Assembly (NCBI GenBank): GCA_030295235.1
Contig: AP026124.1
Location: 1,550,001-1,614,000 of the forward strand
Length of the DNA stretch: 64,000 nt
Direction of reading: 5' to 3'
Source: Fistulifera solaris
Lineage: Eukaryota
How positions within the stretch are numbered: position 1 is the first letter of the stretch; each line of letters starts with the position of its first letter. Below the pieces are notes generated by a model. That model ran no database searches. It was not told the origin of the DNA and was given only the letters and a program-made list of their open reading frames with translations. Below are positions 46,901 through 58,061 of the stretch, piece by piece. Made by a program: the position numbers and the translations under genes.

Positions 46901-47079
46901 AGTATGAATGTGATGGAGCGACTATGGAGCCCAGTGTAAGCACCGTCACGACCCACGACTGCATGTCAGTCATTAATGCATGCAAAAACCCCAAAATGCA
47001 AAATGCAGAACGAACGAAGCTGCCATAAAATCATTTTGTAACTGTTGTTACTGTGATTTATTCGTATTCGTACTCATTG

Positions 47080-48830
47080 ATGGAAAGCAGGCACAGAAAC
47101 AGCGAGAAGCGTCGTCCTCTGGCCGAAAATGAGGCGCTAGAACAGGCTTCGTTCCTGACGCCGGTCATGTTATCGATTCTGGTGACCGAAACTGGTAAGT
47201 CTCGATACTTGTATCGTTCAAAAAGCCGTTCCACTGTTCTTACTTTATATTTTCCACTAGGAGAACGCTTCGCATACTTTGGCTTTCGTGCGGTGCTGGT
47301 TTTGTATTTCAACCAGGCAGTCGAGTATGACGAAAGTCAATCCGTGGCGAACTATGCTTTTGTTACGTCATTGGCCTATTTCTCCCCGATTGCGGGAGCC
47401 GTTATGGCCGATGGACGCTGGGGGCGATACAATACGATTCTCTACTTCGGGATTGTATACATATTTGGTCTCGCCATTTTGACGGCTGCTTCCGTGTTAC
47501 ACGATCTTTCCTTGAAACGACTTGTCTCATTCGTGGGTTTGTTCTTTGTGTGCCTGGGTACTGGAGGGATCAAGCCATGCGTTTCTTCTTTTGGAGCCGA
47601 TCAAGTAGGGCATGCTCCCAATATTCAAGATGATGATGATAATAAGGATAGTGTGGGGCAAATCGAATTGGCCGCACGGGCAGCGCAAGTGCAAGGCTTC
47701 TTTGCCTACTTTTACTTTTGCATCAATCTCGGAGCATTGACCAGCATATCTACCATTCCTTTATTACGAGCTCATTATGGTTTTCGAGCCGCCTTTTTCA
47801 CGCCTCTGGTGTTCATGATACTCGCAATGGCACTGTTTGTGTCCAAACGCCAAGATTATGTTCATCACCTTCCTGAAAAGACGGGTCTTCGCTACTCACG
47901 ACTTGCCGCTACACGCTTTGGCTCTTTCGGAGAAATATCGCAAACTCGTATCCTTCTCTAACGTCCCGTTTACCATTCTTGACGCCAGGATCCTTGTCTG
48001 AGTATAGCGTGTTGCGAAATTCTCTAGACGACGAGACCAAGACGACTAGGGAAGACGAAGTGATTGTTGATGACGATGGCTCCTCGGACCTACAGCTTGA
48101 AGATGCGGCTCAAGCCTTACATGTCTTACCGATCATGATGATGCTCCCTATCTTTTGGGCTCTCTATGATCAACAAAGCTCTGTGTGGACATTGCAGGCT
48201 CAACGGATGAAGCTGCATGGTCTACAACCAGAACAGCTCAACGTCATTAATCCAATGCAGATCATGGTGTTCATTCCATTCTTTGACAAAATTGTGTATC
48301 CAGCGCTACGACAACGTCATGTGAATATTGAACCGCTGCGGCGTATGTCATGGGGAATGTTGCTGGCGGCGGCCTCTTTCGTGATCAGCGGATTGGTGGA
48401 AAATGCGATACAGAAAGCAACTCCGAATTCGGTCGATGTGTTCTGGCAACTACCCCAAATTACAGTATTGGCGATCGCTGAAATATTTCTTAGTGTAACA
48501 GGCTTGGAGTTTGCATACGCGACGTCATCAGAACGCTTGAAAACATTCCTCATGGGGGTCTTTCTCCTTACAACTGCAGTGGGCGACATGTTCAGTGGTG
48601 TACTTTATTCGACCATTTTCGCCCATCTGAACCAAGCCGTTGTTTTGTATGTTTGCGCTGCCTTGATGCTAGGAAATCTTGCCTTATATCAGAAGGTGGT
48701 CGTGTGGTACAATCGTTGTGATGTTCACACTTTGCGAGAGTCATCGGACGATATCGAGATCCAAGCGTTCAAGAGATCAGCCATCCGCGAAACTACATCT
48801 TCAAATAGCCACGACGTTCAAGTTACATAA
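47080..48830 (+). CDS. POT/PTR proton-dependent oligopeptide transporter
   Basis: ETGERFAYFG (ExxER) after removing intron 47195-47260; GTGGIKPCVSSFGADQ; FYFCINLG; frameshift ~47880. Confidence 0.92.
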
Positions 48831-48950
48831 AGGGAAACTCGACGCATCAATTTTGCACACAACGGAAAATTCATACCAAATGTCGAACAAGCAATAATGG
48901 ATTACTACTCCTTCGCAGCTTACGAGCTAGGCAATATCTTTATAAAGACT

Positions 48951-51900
48951 TCAGTGACGCCAATACAGGCTGTCGGGAACAAATCTTTTCGCCTTCGATA
49001 CGAGAACTTTTATTTCAGAGCATGGGACTAAATAGCACCGTTGTTTTTCAAATGGGTCCGCTCTGCTGAGGATCCCGATTACTCGACCTTCGTCGTTGAC
49101 GCATGGTCCTCCGGAGTGTCCCGGAATCGTTGGGCATATAATAACTATTTCCTCGCGGGGTGAGAACGAATTATGGCTTGTAGAATCGTCTGAGCTACTA
49201 TCATCATCCTGTGGAGGGGAGACGAAGCGTCGGACAATGTATCCCTGCGCAAAATCAGCAGAACGATTAATGTGCTTTCCCTTTTCAAGAATACCGTCAC
49301 CACCCTGATTGAATCCAACAATTCTAACGGTTTCTTCAAGCTCATATTTAGTAGTCATTTTGAGGGGCTTCAAGTCTTCCTCTAGCATCATGTCCATTGC
49401 AATAAGACGCTCCACTTGATAAGCGCAACCCTCGCCTTCGTTGTCAACATCGTTTTCCATCCGTGTCTTTATACGAATGACGCATGCATCAACATAATGT
49501 ATATCATCGGCAATTAACTCTCCAAAGTATCTCCATAAAGCTTTATGTTCGTTTTCGTTGCGGTTACTATCGCTACCGTCACTCTTCTCTGGAATAACAC
49601 CAATCACCACTTTCGCATCAGGGAGTCCAAAGTAAGGGACTCCAAAATTGTTCCCTCCTTCCATGTTAAAAAGCACATGGCCAGCTGTCACAATCAAACC
49701 TAACTTTTTGTCGATGACGAAACCAGATCCCACATTGCGAACTCGTTTTGTATCCGAATCCCACAAACCAACCAACACGACACTCGGAAAAATTTCATCT
49801 ACAGGTTTAGAGCCTTTTAGCGGATTTGCCTCGTGAACAGGAGCCTCTTTACGATCGGCGGCAGTGCCGCAAATGAGATTTGAATCTAGTCTATGCCCTC
49901 GCATGCAGCGAACTACGGAGCTTCCGCTTTGCGCAAGAGCATACACGCTATCCCAACCCCACGTACTAGCACTGAGCGGGTCAGAACGAGCGAGGCATTC
50001 GGGGCAAACAGCCTGAAAGTCCACATTTGCGAACGAATCAAGATTTTTACGCACAGCATCAAGGATAACCTTGTAGCCACCTTGTGAACACAAGAGATGC
50101 TTTCTTGAGTCTCACAGTTGGTCGATACGTGAAAATCAATGAGCATACTTACCTTGCCAAAGTTTCAGACCATGATGACCAACCTGTCCCTTGCCGCTGA
50201 CGATCACTCGTTGCATACTTGCACGCATTGCATCAGCAGCTACGCAGTGACCGGCTGTCTGATCCACAATGGAAACAAATATTTCAACAAAGCTTTCACG
50301 AATTTCTCCGCTTTCATGATCAGCAAACACTGTTCCCATTTTGACTATTAAAGATGAATTCCAGCATGCCACTTGATGAATACGGACTCTCCCGAGCGCT
50401 TGATCATCGTGATCTTCCAAGAACTCGTCCATGGATGCCTTTCGCAGAGGGACTGTATGCGATCGCAGCATTGATTCGCCTAAAACTGGTGCCGCTTTAA
50501 ACGCCTTAGAAAACTTGTACACCTCTCTGAGAACTGTGACAGTTAAGTCCTCCATCAGATGCGACGGCGCACCATCACGGAAAAGCCAGGAATGACAAAG
50601 TGTAGTCATCCATGCTTCTTTTGTCTTATAAGTCCACACCTCACGAGGATCTGCTTGAGCGAGCAAGCTGGGAACAAAAAAAATTTCACCCCGACTATCC
50701 AAAGGAGATGACGACTACGAGAAGGTACTAAAGTAAGGACACGCGACGCCATACAGGTTACATAAGTTGTAGGTCGTAAGACACTTACCACATCGAGAGG
50801 AAGAAAGACTCCAGTATGAACCAATAGTTGAGCCAAAAAGGTGAACATAGTCGGCGTTGATGTAGACGTTTCTGCAACTTGAGAATAGTGATCGGCTGCC
50901 TCCCTCATGAAGCTCATCGATTGCCAAAGCATTTCAGCGTCTTTGTCGCTCAACAAAGGGCAATTGTGTGAGCCAGCGCTCAGAGTTCGAATGACTTCGC
51001 TCTCCGAAAACTTGAATGGGCTATAAATGCATTGCAAGTTCATAAAGCGTCGAGTCTCTTGCAGCTCTCTTTTCAGATCATTTCTCAGAATGCAACTCAA
51101 CGCCGAAACGAGCCATTTGCGACTTAGTACAATATACCGAGAAAGTACTTCGTCCCCAGCTGACCCAAAATATAGAATTTCTCCGATATTTGATAAAAAT
51201 TGCAAAGTTTTAGTGACTTCCTTCATTTCCATTTTGTCACCGATTTCCCCAAGAAGATAATCCAATAATATCAATTTGTGCCCTTCCTTGAACCGACGAA
51301 TGAGTTCCATGACCATCACCGTGCCCTTCGACACTGGAGTGCCAACATGGTCAAAAACTGAACGAGTATCATCGGATGCTATTGCCTGAATCGTATCCTG
51401 TAGACGATCGAACCCTTTACCAGTGGCATAGTCTACAGTAAGAATATCACTTTCAGCACTTGAAATTAACTTCGGAGCTGCACCTTGGCTTTCCAAACGA
51501 TTAACATGCTCCACCAACACGTTTTTCAGCATCGCACACCGTCTAGCAACCTCCTCGTCGGACATAATCTCATTCGGCGTGATGACTACAGGGAGCACAG
51601 CAGAATTGTCTCCTCGTTGCGCAATCATGTCAACCCAAGGAAGGACGCGTTGATTGATGTCAGCAAGTAAGAAGCGATCAGCTTTCCGATTGGCTTCTTC
51701 GAGATGAAATGCATTGGACAATGCATCGATGCCGCCCGAATCACCAGTCTCTTCTTCGTCTTCATTATCTTCGTCTACATCATCTGGTTCACAGCCAGCA
51801 TGGATTCGAAAAGTTCTTCGATTCGTGCAAGCCAAATCCCAAACAAGTAAATACAAGGATTGACCAGAGAAGAAGAGTGACTGGGTTGCTGGATGCGCCC

Positions 51901-53740
51901 CAAAATTGCTCATTTCTTCGCGAACCTCCGGACTTTGAACATCCCAGATCATAAACTTGATGGGCAGGTCATCAGCCAAAACGCTCGTCTCGTCCTTCTT
52001 GCATGGAGTCCAACTATGAACGTCAACCCCAAGGGTGGCTCTACGACGTGGTCGTTTCTGGCTGTCGCGGAGGGAACGCGCCACCCATGATTTATCTACA
52101 CCAGGTGCTGCGACCGTGATCACTTTCAGCATGTCATTGTACACGTGCAAGTCTGCATTGCATGATCTTGAAAGGGGTACTGGACCACCATCTGATTTTC
52201 CTCGCGGCAGAATGCGTGCCGGTGGCAGATCAGCGGAATCCAAGTCGACAGTGGTTTCTTGCGCTGCTCGCATTAACATTGCTTCGACATCCGGTGTATC
52301 GCCTTTGTCAACTTTGTAATCAGCATCACGAGGAAGTGCACTGGCGATCATCGACCCGTCGTCTTTTTTCCAGTATGGATAATCTTCTGTGTCGATGACA
52401 GCAGCAACATCAGCGGCCAATACTCCTGCCTCGAGGACTGAGTCCATAATTTGATCTTCGGTCCCCACATAATTTGCCATCACAGAATTTGATCCAACCC
52501 TTCGATGTCTATGGATCGAACCTTGTAGACTGGATCCGGGAGAAGCGGCTTCAGACAAAAGCGGACGATCATTTAAGGAAGCCGCAGAAAGTGCGGCAGT
52601 TGGCGGTGACAATGGATCCTCGTAACGAGCCGCCGAGTAGTAGCCAGTACGATTTAATGGACCAAATGAAGATTCGAGTCCTGTAATGGCGTTAAATTGA
52701 TTCGCGGGGGCAATGAAATCTTCCGGTTCGGATTGTTGTGACCTTCGAAACAGCTGATCGTCGCTGTGATTAGAAGTGGAAGCGGTGTCGTCAGATCTAC
52801 CCCAAGAAAAGATAGACTTCTTTTTCCCACGCTTCTTTTGCTGTTTGTTTTCTTTTCGGTTAGGCGATGACGGAAGCGACAGATTGGCTTCTGTCAGCGA
52901 TCCAGTCGGCACCGGCGGTTCGTCGGAAAGAGCGAATGGTTCCTGCTCCATAACTTCTGTAGATCCTCCACTTTCATTTCGCGATGAGCCACGAGCGCCT
53001 CTTTTAAGAAATTTCGAGAGACGCCTCACCCCTTTTTTCACTCGATTTGGAGCCTGCGTCACGGTCTGACATTTGCGTTGCTGCGCTTCTCGAATTCGAT
53101 CTTGGATGATATCGCTGGGATGATGTTCATGTCTGGGTAGTTCGACTAGATCCCCATCCACCACGCAATATTCCACTCCACCGACACCTATATCTTGCAC
53201 ATTACGCGTACTGGTAGCAAGCGTCGGCTCTGAATGTATATTGTGAAAATTCCTCATTTGCTCAAAGCTTCGAAGACCGTCTCCTTCACTGCGAATCGAA
53301 AGTGGGATAGTATCTTCATCCTGATGCGCACTAGCTAGACGGCGATGTTCATTGGGAAGCAATGGTGAGGATACCGCCAGTGAAAATTGATCAATCCCCG
53401 TCCGCACCAAGTCTCTCACAAACGTAGCCACGGGATAGGCGTAATTTCCCGAACTCACACGACGACCGTCATCGGAAATGGCTACCACAGGCACAACTGG
53501 AGGAGGAAGCTCGTCAAACTCTCTCCTCAACATTTCTGAGCTCTGGCTATTTAAGCTTCCCATATTTTGCCAATCTCTTAACAGTGCGGAGGATGTGTGG
53601 CTGTTCAAGCTACTGTTGTTGTTGTTTTCGAAGTTCATCGCATGGCTTGGATTTCTGTTGGTGTCAGCGGAAGCCCCTTCCGTTCCCGAAACAGCCGGAT
53701 AAAGTGCATTTGCCTGTTCGTTCCGGTTCGGAGTAGCCAT
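48951..53740 (-). CDS. Roco-like protein (degenerate Roc, COR) fused to a C-terminal trypsin-like serine protease
   Basis: ATLGVDV, IWDV, HPATQSLFF..SLYLLVWDL (Roc); FLSNIGEILYF and FFVPSLL (COR); TAGHV, DACV, GHSGGP (protease); introns 50715-50788 and 50081-50152. Confidence 0.85.
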
Positions 53741-54151
53741 CCTTGAGTTGAGAAGATGATTGTAATGATCTAATGATGTAAGGAAAGAGTGTCGCTGTAT
53801 TGCTTTGACTGCGTTATGCATTCGGAACCTCGAAACTACTCGGAACTGGCGGTCGAAGGCAAAAACGTCGTCGACGCTCATTATTCTTTCTGGGAGGTGG
53901 CTTGCGCGACGCATCTTCTTCATTGGAGATAGTTCACGTGAAGGCGTGAAGAACTATCGTTAAAATGTACTACTGTAGCAACCTTTATCCGGCACCTAAG
54001 GTACGGGAAAAAGTGTACATTCACGTAGGCCCTCGTAGAGAAATGTACCAAGCAGAGGTGCGTTCCCGTGTCTCACTAGTTTGGTTTTTTTGCACCGGCA
54101 ACTGCATTTTTCCTCTTTAACATAAAACAATGAATTCCGAAACAAAAGAGC

Positions 54152-55434
54152 ATGCCAGAAGAATCATCATCTTTGCCCTTTGCGTCTTATCACAGGGCCT
54201 CTCAAGTCGGAGCAGGATCGTTCGGGAGTGTTCTGACAGTCTACAATGACGAAGGAGAACAATTTGCACTCAAGTTATTTTTCAAAGGAGACAATGACAA
54301 CGACGACGACGACGACGAAAGCGCGGTTCCTCTGGAATTGGGTACGCTAAGAGAAATATCTTGCTTACGATTTCTTCGTGGACGAACCGAAGAATCACAT
54401 CATCCCTCATATCATTCGTTTGGTGGATATTCAGCCCGAGTGGTCGGAAGAAGAAGGAGGCGCGGGGACGTCGGGATGTCTCGGCATGGCCATGCCTTGG
54501 TTCCCCCTGTTCGCTGGCGAAAGCGATTGAGCAGAAAAGATTTCAGAGTGACAAGCGCGTCAAAGTTCAAATAGCACACGATCTGTTAGCGGCAGTGGAA
54601 TTCTTGCACAAAAATGGAATCATGCATCGCGACATAAAAAGCGACAATATTCTTCTGCAGCAAGATGAAAATTCTTGGCGTGCGGTTCTCACCGATTTCA
54701 GTCTCGCCAAGGTATTTGTCGACAAAAAGGATAACTACGCGGGTCATACCGGAGAAGTCGGTACGTTAGTGTACTCAGCTCCTGAAATTTTGAACGATGA
54801 AGAGTACGATGCTTCGGTAGATTTGTGGAGCGTTGGCGTCGTCTTGATCGAATTATTGAAGCAGGAAACTACACCCGGACTTAAAGCAAAGCAGATTGTA
54901 CCCCATATTCAAACAATATTGAAAGGATTGTCAGATCAACCGTTTCCTGATTTGATACGAAGCTTACTTAAGGTGGATCCGGCCGAGCGGCTTTCTGCCA
55001 ACGAGGCCTTACAGCACGAACTCTTTTCCAAGTTTCAGCTGGATGTTCCCAATTCTTCGATATTGAATGTGAAAGATGTTTTACCATACGAATATACGAG
55101 TGATTTATCCAAAAACGCGAGGGAGAAACGACTTGCCTTGATCAAAAAGGCATGCGCGTATTTAGAATCCGAGTCACCCCTTACCGCAAAAGCGGCCTTT
55201 GAATACAGCACGCAACTTGATCAACTGGATGACAATGTGAATGAATCGCAAAGTTTACTAGACTGTGTCGTACTCGCGCACCGTTTCTTCGAGGTCGAAC
55301 ACCCTGATCTCGATGCGCTAGACGAAGAAGACAAGGGTATCTTTGCCGAATGGTCGCTGTCGGAATACGTGGAGAATGAATCCACTTTGTTCATGCTGCT
55401 AGATTATTGCTTATATCCACGGTTCTACGAGTAA
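54152..55434 (+). CDS. Ser/Thr protein kinase
   Basis: GAGSFG, FALK, HRDIKSDN, DFS (variant DFG), YSAPE, DLWSVG; frameshift(s) ~54390-54510. Confidence 0.9.
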
Positions 55435-56205: not shown

Positions 56206-57850
56206 TCACCTTACCTCGCCGACGAATGTAATCATAAACCCGAGGGAATTGTTATCCCTTTTCACACGCCACAACGAGTACTCGAGATAAGTAACCCTTC
56301 CATCAATCATTGCTTGTTCATGTAGAAAAGGTAAATAAAGAGTTCGGTGCAATGTACTTGTCCTATCGGTGTCTAGAAAAGGAACTGTATGAATCAACTC
56401 GACACGGAGCGATGAAACACAGTCACTACCCCCAAGATCGACAATCCAGTCACAATCGTTTGGATCAACGTAGCGCTCCGTTTGTTCTAAGTTGCGATCA
56501 TTGAAGAGCTGCAGGTGCTGTATATTTTCTGGACGAGATCCTTTGAACGGCTGCGGCAATTGCCCCTTGAATGAAGACGGCAGGAAACGCAACTCTCCGT
56601 TTAAAAGAACGACCCCGGAAAGCGATACCACTCTCCACATGTGCAAATCAGTTCCCGTGGTTGATCCGAGACTAAGGCATAAAGTAAAAGAGGTGCTCCG
56701 TAATACTTGCTCAAAGCAATCGTGCGACTGACCGAAACCACAACGGAAGTCGTCCATACAATAGTGTGAAGACCGGTTCGCAGTCTCTTGATCAAAGGTA
56801 GGAATTTCTGGGTAATATCCAAAACGATATCCACCGTAACGATGGCGCCAATGATGAGTATGGGGTAAATGGGAAACAGAAATCGCTCTTCCTTGTGCGG
56901 TCGAGGAAAAGTGATGGCCAACCAAAGCACGAGCGGCGATAAAATGCCAAGGATCGTATATCGTCTGCACAAAAGACAGAGCGGTAAAGCCATCATTCCA
57001 AACGGAGCTACAATGTTCAGATTCAATAACAGGTTCTTGATATAATAAGATACTGGCTCGACGCCGTATAACTCATCACCACCTCCAGCTGCATTGTAAC
57101 TGAAGATGTTAACGGTGGGTGAAACCCATTTTCCGTAATATGAATGATCGATCATCATGGTGGTCCCTTGCACGATAATTGTACAAAAGGCGGTCCATCC
57201 GATAGTTGCAAGAAGCTTCCCAGCTCGCCAATTTTTCCAAAGGATGCTTATCCCCAAGGGAAGCAACATGACCGCACCAAATGGCCAGCCGACCATTAAC
57301 GTCGTCGTGACCGCCACCAAAACAAAGGAGTAATGCCGCTTTTCCAAGTATAAAGCAGTTGCTAACATCCACGCCATCATCCATGTCGAAGACGGCAAAA
57401 GGCTGCGGCCGAATGGCTGACACCGGCACTGAGTAGCAGGACGAACGCCACCCAATGGGTATTAGCAAGGTGGCCAGAGAGAGCCCATAAAAAGTACAAC
57501 TCACAAATAGCTGTTATTGCTCCTAGAAAACTTCGGAGAAGCAGAAATATAGCCAATTTCTCATGGGACACATTATGATCGACCAAGAAAGAAGCCCATC
57601 GAAGGGCTACTGGTGTCACGATTTGTGCCACTATTTTGAGCGGGAGCAAGTATGCATACGTCCGAAGCGCATATTGATGCGCATACTCCCACGTTTGCAT
57701 GCCATATCCGTAAAGAATGAAGTGGAGCGGCTCCCAGTAGTTATAAACTTCATCGCAATCTGTGATGGGTAAGCGATTGGCCCAATAGATACGCCAGCCC
57801 ACGTATACTGGAGCTATCGCAAAAACCCAAGTTCTCTCCGTCTTACTCAT
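56206..57850 (-). CDS. ALG9: Alpha-1,2-mannosyltransferase (GT22)
   Basis: DCDEVYNYWEP, QTWEY, PHKEERFLFPIYP and EWYRFPGSFF motifs; frameshifts ~57390-57415 and ~56600; exact 3' end uncertain. Confidence 0.92.
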
Positions 57851-58061
57851 CCTTTCTCCGACCTTCTATAAGAAGATCGAGCTGACATGAAGTCTAAAAT
57901 CAGCAAAACCAGAGACAATGATGACATCGTCGTCCCCAAACGTCGAATCGAATCATTCAAAAAGTGTCGCGTTGACAATTAATGTCCTTTATTGCTTTGC
58001 CTGCAAACATGCGGTTTGAAATTTGTCGAGCATAGGCTGCCGACTGCCAGACGACACAGTT

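Follow-up and report, generated by a model that had tools for sequence, protein, structure and literature searches.

A diatom Roco-protease without leucine-rich repeats, its degenerate Roc domain and its canonical sister family

Proteins that join a Roc GTPase domain and a COR domain to a peptidase have already been reported. Brown-algal ROCOs of group 3 end in a peptidase and are nested among other ROCOs of the SAR lineage (stramenopiles, alveolates and Rhizaria), some of which share that domain; no function is given for them (PMC11378527; this and the other papers cited are drawn on from the sections available). The available sections of PMC3341825 and PMC7159879 contain nothing on proteases in Rocos, and the control of Roco effectors such as LRRK2 by nucleotide state and COR pairing is still debated (PMC6337361). 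Here we describe a gene on the minus strand of Fistulifera solaris contig AP026124.1, within a 64-kb stretch referred to as the window, that encodes a Roco protein without leucine-rich repeats (LRRs), with an acidic residue in its P-loop and with a C-terminal serine protease. The original prediction for this locus depended on the architecture not being characterized already; Roco-peptidases are in print (PMC11378527, PMC8195603), but uncharacterized in the sections available. What was not found in print is an LRR-less branch with an acidic P-loop and a canonical diatom sister. The literature search, which went by titles and the opening lines of abstracts, returned no Roco with degenerate G motifs and no studied diatom Roco-protease; subscription papers lay mostly outside its scope, and the figures and tables of PMC11378527 may name diatom members.

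Three exons make up the gene. Exon 1 (50789..53740, minus strand) encodes residues 1-984, comprising the N-terminal region, the degenerate Roc domain and most of COR-A; exon 2 (50153..50714) encodes the end of COR-A and most of COR-B; and exon 3 (48940..50080) encodes the end of COR-B, a site of three Cys and one His (C3H) and the protease, with the true stop at 48940. Both introns are bounded by GT..AG, the first being 74 nt long in phase 0 (50715..50788) and the second 72 nt in phase 1 (50081..50152). As read from the window, the joined segments 53740-50789, 50714-50153 and 50080-48951 give a frame of 1547 residues with no internal stop. Splicing was assessed on contigs of four public runs from one study (X1 to X4), whose RNA label was guessed. 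Intron 1 is removed in contigs of two of the four runs (X2 and X4) and intron 2 in three (X2, X3 and X4), while X1 is unspliced at both. The four listed records with exon joints match this gene copy with 0 mismatches, and a single X3 contig leads from exon 2 across intron 2 to beyond the catalytic His codon. No single record among the contigs of the four runs covers the whole gene, the joints being seen piecewise. Because both introns are spliced in public runs, Roc-COR and protease form one chain, in agreement with the single transcript originally proposed. A separate protease gene is ruled out by the splice joints and by fused homologues.

Relative to the window, all four runs have one extra base behind 48985. 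The corrected frame stops at 48940 and its C-terminus resembles the C-termini of homologues. Since runs and homologues agree, we conclude that the window lacks one base close to the stop, and the C-terminus as read from it was dropped. Loci L006-L008, the homeologous and paralogous ones, likewise contain frame breaks, though not in the same positions from copy to copy; these are probably assembly errors.

Pfam identified the protease in the gene product as Trypsin_2 (E 2.6e-15), whereas its matches to Roc (E 5.7e-4; approximately residues 536-792, 51365..52135, minus strand) and COR-A were weak and under the curated cut-offs. A profile of 93 homologues had the LRRK2 Roc domain as its best match in the PDB (E 1e-7), followed by HTRA1, the best protease match. 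Fold evidence comes from an AlphaFold2 model of a homologue, P0011, 58% identical over the core, rather than of this protein itself (predicted local distance difference test score, pLDDT, 85.6; predicted template modelling score, pTM, 0.73); a single-sequence model of this gene's Roc-COR-A reached a pLDDT of 38.7 and was not used. Foldseek placed LRRK1 (E 1e-19), LRRK2 and C. tepidum Roco at the top for the P0011 model. VIA-align matched the model to M. barkeri Roco2 (Z 26.7, root-mean-square deviation 3.2 A over 312 residues), LRRK2 (Z 24.2) and DegP (Z 23.6, 3.2 A over 197 residues). By Pfam, profile, Foldseek and VIA-align, with the fold taken from P0011, Roc is directly followed by COR, and the anticipated Roc-COR fold was thus recovered.

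The protease domain (48990..49802, minus strand) is HtrA/DegP-like and has the complete triad originally described: His1306 (49677-49679), Asp1369 (49488-49490) and Ser1494 (49113-49115), intact in 83/83 homologue rows. Pfam found no PDZ domain, the protein ending about 15 residues after the protease, and no signal peptide was evident by inspection. Classical trypsin zymogens have Asp just before the catalytic Ser. Here the preceding residue is His in 83 of 84 rows, which suggests that activation is allosteric in the HtrA manner. The second motif of the original description, CPEC at residue 1197 with C..GH at residue 1230, is present as a putative zinc site (Cys-x2-Cys ... Cys-x3-His; 49893..50006, minus strand) and is intact in 89/89 rows. 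As the VIA-align alignments to LRRK1 and LRRK2 extend beyond this motif, we assign it to the end of COR-B, where it may bind zinc. An independent zinc-finger domain is ruled out, the site lying within the range aligned to LRRK COR-B.

A search with residues 530-984 yielded 122 proteins among 8000 scored candidates. Of these, 120 were listed, and every named protein among the matches listed is from a diatom; we call this family clade B. It includes an orthologue in Phaeodactylum tricornutum, XP_002178309.1. Trypsin_2 was detected in 83 of the 120, and the other 37 stop early, probably at introns or contig ends. Most homologues, transcript-derived ones included, form one alignment block from about residue 530 to about residue 1537. 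The absence of LRRs, as first noted for this gene, extends to the family: no Pfam family matched residues 1-530, no LRR family was found in the 120 listed matches, and a simple LRR pattern was absent from 90 of the 91 clade-B N-termini long enough for the test. This N-terminal region (52151..53740, minus strand), rich in Ser, Ala, Arg and Pro, was originally described as disordered. It is indeed of low complexity, but short islands near residues 55-58, 80-86, 102-113, 193-202, 232-245, 423-495 and 515-526 are conserved across clade B. One conserved stretch of clade-B N-termini (window 53000-53050, residues 232-247) is basic and amphipathic-looking, a possible membrane- or partner-binding helix.

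The G motifs of clade B have decayed selectively. Counting only rows with a letter in the alignment column concerned, the residue before the P-loop Lys is Asp in 78 of 109 rows, Glu in 21, Ala in 4, Gly in 2 and another residue in 4. In this gene the G1 motif reads AAPGVDKS (from residue 544; 52088..52111), with Asp549 (52094-52096) in place of the Gly. The P-loop otherwise keeps its Lys (107/109) and Ser/Thr (95/109), and switch I keeps its Thr (85/108; Thr569 in G2 here, 52028..52042). G3 reads WDVQS (from residue 599; 51932..51946), where the family consensus is WDVQG, and is followed by an insertion relative to the sister family; its Asp is present in 94 of 110 rows and its Gly in 82 of 107. 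In the G4 region, VVITPN (51572..51589), the guanine-binding Asp is absent and this copy has Asn. Across clade B that Asp is found in 18 of 115 rows, a comparison in which the register is shifted by a Pro and which concerns a motif that varies in Rocs. From these counts, the G1 change is an old one in which the acid has been kept, and G4 has been lost. Clade B mostly keeps DxxG, so the G3 defect of this copy is not typical. The non-canonical P-loop of the original prediction therefore holds for the family (Asp or Glu in 99/109 rows). Its G3 change is present in this copy, but as evidence of a dead site it is not supported, the family keeping DxxG. Its suggestion that GTP control might have been lost gains from G4, which it had missed: judged by G1 and G4, the clade-B Roc domain has probably ceased to bind GTP normally. 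Decay of a pseudogene is ruled out by the intact triad and by the family-wide G1 change.

A paralogue with the same protease, which the original prediction had missed, lies at C2:1661510, about 53 kb from the start of this gene. This locus (L006; approximately 1657200-1662647 of contig C2 in genome G000, plus strand, divergent relative to our gene) encodes an LRR-Roc-COR-protease with G1 GMAMAGKTS, a G2 Thr, G3 WDFAGQ and a G4 Asp; its C3H site and triad are those of our gene. Contig C1 holds one further copy of each gene, L007 being that of the paralogue, and its copy of the clade-B gene is about 93% identical. A second genome search revealed no further loci with the core, which leaves one locus of each kind per sub-genome. 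Of the 59 matches to Pfam Roc in the genome, 40-odd outscore the gene described here; these are probably ordinary small GTPases, and the scan is no guide to Roco number. A search restricted to proteins longer than 1551 residues recovered 36 relatives of the paralogue, here termed clade A, of which 33 were aligned and 3 were dropped by trimming. LRR, Roc and Trypsin_2 are listed for all 36, the centric diatoms Thalassiosira and Odontella included, and the simple LRR pattern gives 3-7 matches in each. The 33 aligned rows are invariant in the G1 Gly-Lys-Thr, in G3 and in the triad, so that Gly precedes the P-loop Lys in 33/33, and all 33 have the G4 Asp.

In FastTree trees, unrooted and drawn at the midpoint, clades A (36 rows) and B (29 rows) separate with a support of 100. 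Besides this genome, both occur in Mayamaea, Epithemia, Nitzschia Nitz4, a Bacillariaceae genome and Cylindrotheca; other named species had only A or only B among the matches of these limited searches. In Mayamaea the two genes have nearby locus tags and contigs equal in size. Named diatoms are grouped alike in both clades, with a core 42-62% identical across them. We take clade A as the ancestral design because published relatives carry LRRs.

Conservation differs between the two clades at the nucleotide site: clade B scores 0.59 against 0.90 for clade A at G1 and 0.60 against 0.88 at G4, yet 0.86 against 0.92 in the region after switch II, which forms the Roc-COR contact (PMC6337361). This drop at G1 and G4 with retention at the contact supports the reading that we consider somewhat better than even, namely that clade B is a cytosolic HtrA-like protease on a Roco scaffold uncoupled from nucleotide and switched by COR pairing, with either paralogue A or the N-terminal islands providing its input. 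The P-loop Gly before the Lys corresponds to G15 of H-Ras and G17 of RhoA (PMC12969783). Changing this Gly to Val in RhoA (G17V) reduces GTP binding and yields a dominant-negative protein, and G17E is recorded among tumour alleles (PMC5927519). In clade B the acid would block or mimic phosphate and hold Roc in a state like the nucleotide-free one, as a structural part packed on COR. COR-B, which drives pairing in C. tepidum Roco (PMC6337361), would then pair two chains and thereby switch the PDZ-less protease allosterically; this gating is proposed by analogy with other Roco proteins. Input would come from outside the dead pocket: tentatively, from a mixed dimer to which paralogue A contributes its GTP and LRR cycle or, with slightly less confidence, from a self-dimer whose N-terminal islands are modified or bound by partners. 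The predicted output is limited cleavage of proteins in the cytosol, serving housekeeping or signalling.

Several observations weigh against such a scaffold. Clade B retains the Lys, Ser/Thr, switch I Thr and G3 Asp at the frequencies given above, and the fully dead pG1 of p190RhoGAP keeps less (PMC5593906). Two clade-B rows have the canonical P-loop Gly, active Rocs differ from one another in G4 and G5 (PMC6337361), and the G4 of clade A is itself atypical. Conservation over the whole Roc is 0.62 in B and 0.78 in A; B being less conserved throughout, part of its fall at G1 and G4 is general. The good structural model is that of a homologue. As to a mixed dimer, Epithemia and Nitzschia Nitz4 have A and B on separate contigs, and B has an intact protease of its own, so that A would not be needed for catalysis. 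Complex prediction for the Mayamaea A and B COR regions, run without alignments or controls, scored 0.20 and 0.00, short of the mark of 0.34, and speaks neither for nor against pairing.

Because clade B keeps Lys, Thr and DxxG, unlike p190RhoGAP pG1, the chief alternative, which we hold unlikely, is a Roc site retuned rather than dead, one in which a ligand carrying phosphate, bound together with Mg, would gate the protease; this ligand would be another nucleotide or, bound weakly, a guanine nucleotide. Its P-loop is of normal length, modelled with a pLDDT of about 95 at residues 41-60 of the homologue, and the only motif broadly lost is the guanine one. An acid at the Gly position in nearly all rows should, however, repel phosphate, the middle of the P-loop varies in letters and has gaps, and structural residues may stay without a ligand. 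At the other extreme, Roc-COR may serve only as a frame for stability or localization of a constitutive protease that is not gated at all. LRR input and GTP motifs have both been lost while the triad is intact, which would suit such a frame; even so, we regard it as very unlikely, since diatoms have conserved approximately 650 residues of Roc-COR, with its inner contact region, as well as the N-terminal islands, and HtrA-type protease domains are usually allosteric.

Beyond the diatoms, the reach of the analysis is that of one phmmer search with a single protein against a representative library (461 matches, 150 listed); 44 new relatives of at least 800 residues were aligned and 32 scanned with Pfam. 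Eight proteins form a clade with a support of 100 (P0244, P0249, P0253, P0263, P0272, P0279, P0286 and P0325) in which WWE (7/8) and U-box (6/8) domains stand N-terminal to a degenerate Roc-COR-protease. The P-loop Lys is missing from every one of them, and in five the catalytic His is replaced by Arg. No member of this branch is in the F. solaris genome, and the literature search did not find Roco, WWE and U-box together. As this branch fronts the same Roc-COR-protease, the chassis is modular, and its retention even with both active sites dead would fit a role in pairing. Between clades A and B lie further LRR-less rows with decayed G1; one of them, P0231, keeps the G1 Gly and has a G4 Asp. 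Another degenerate row without LRRs falls with clade A, clustering beside a protein of Leptocylindrus danicus, so Roc decay may have arisen more than once. Two other relatives show duplications: P0160 has an apparent second, degenerate protease-like repeat after the first, and P0354 has two Trypsin_2 stretches.

The nucleotide-uncoupled scaffold can be extended to an asymmetric Roco switch, which we put forward as doubtful: a GTP-cycling A would pair through COR with a B locked in the nucleotide-free state, placing two proteases under one GTP site, on a chassis that can also be fitted with other sensors (WWE/U-box, the protease being dead in some cases). A role in immunity or cell death, by analogy A sensing invaders through its LRRs and B acting as helper or executioner protease, is quite unlikely. 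In its favour, predicted conflict systems of bacteria include LRR-AP-GTPase-COR proteins with trypsin as one of their effector domains (PMC8195603), ROCOs of brown algae have been put forward as candidates for immune receptors (PMC11378527), and a WWE/U-box branch exists. Against it, A and B are each present at a single locus per sub-genome, the groupings of named diatoms agree between the two clades, with a core 42-62% identical, and the peptidase-bearing group 3 does not show the shuffling of LRR exons known from immune-type groups (PMC11378527). Copy number and conservation thus disfavour a fast-evolving receptor, and the stress, immune or cell-death module of the original prediction found no support.

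Around the gene, an approximately 80-bp dispersed repeat with short inner inverted repeats lies about 250 bp upstream of the start codon (window 53998-54077); 155 candidates include at least 39 further copies that are 92-96% identical, and the repeat may be regulatory or like a miniature inverted-repeat transposable element. Head-to-head with the Roco-protease gene is a protein kinase gene (54134-55434, plus strand), split over two frames by an intron or an assembly error. A POT-family peptide transporter (47029-48830, plus strand) and an Alg9-like mannosyltransferase (56206-57865, minus strand) are each split over several frames.

An active and a pseudo-enzyme pair that share one easily assayed protease output separates nucleotide input from COR-pairing input, and knock-outs and assays are within reach because clade B has an orthologue in the model diatom P. 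tricornutum. The two clades also suggest that a major group of phytoplankton has a family of signalling proteases, acting inside the cell, that is so far unstudied. If the asymmetric A/B switch is true, it offers a natural pseudo-Roc, a direct test of effector control by Roc-COR pairing, and mix-and-match signalling proteases.

Clade B shares the Roc-COR fold of LRRK1, LRRK2, C. tepidum Roco and M. barkeri Roco2, but has a protease in place of a kinase, has no LRRs and has lost the G1 Gly and G4 Asp. With HtrA, DegP and DegS it shares the chymotrypsin fold and the His/Asp/Ser triad. Most HtrA/Deg proteases (S1C) have a C-terminal PDZ domain, whereas the clade-B protease is PDZ-less, without evident signal peptide and fused behind COR. 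At G1 and G4, clade B falls within the sequence definition of pseudo-GTPases such as p190RhoGAP pG1/pG2 and CENP-M; unlike them, its decay is selective, Lys, Thr and DxxG mostly staying (PMC5593906). Bacterial LRR-AP-GTPase-COR-effector proteins have the same order of GTPase, COR and protease, but combine fast-evolving LRRs with many paralogues and variable effectors, whereas clade B is conserved, low-copy and eukaryotic (PMC8195603). The peptidase-bearing ROCOs of brown algae (group 3) and of other SAR organisms likewise run from Roc-COR to a C-terminal peptidase (IPR009003) and are low in copy number in SAR genomes; group 3 has LRRs of its own and no degenerate G motifs described, unlike the LRR-less clade B with its P-loop acid (PMC11378527). 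Of the group 3 traits, the C-terminal PA-clan peptidase is present in clade B, while the N-terminal LRRs are missing from B and present in A. Compared by published description, clade A is likely the diatom counterpart of the brown-algal group 3 ROCOs.

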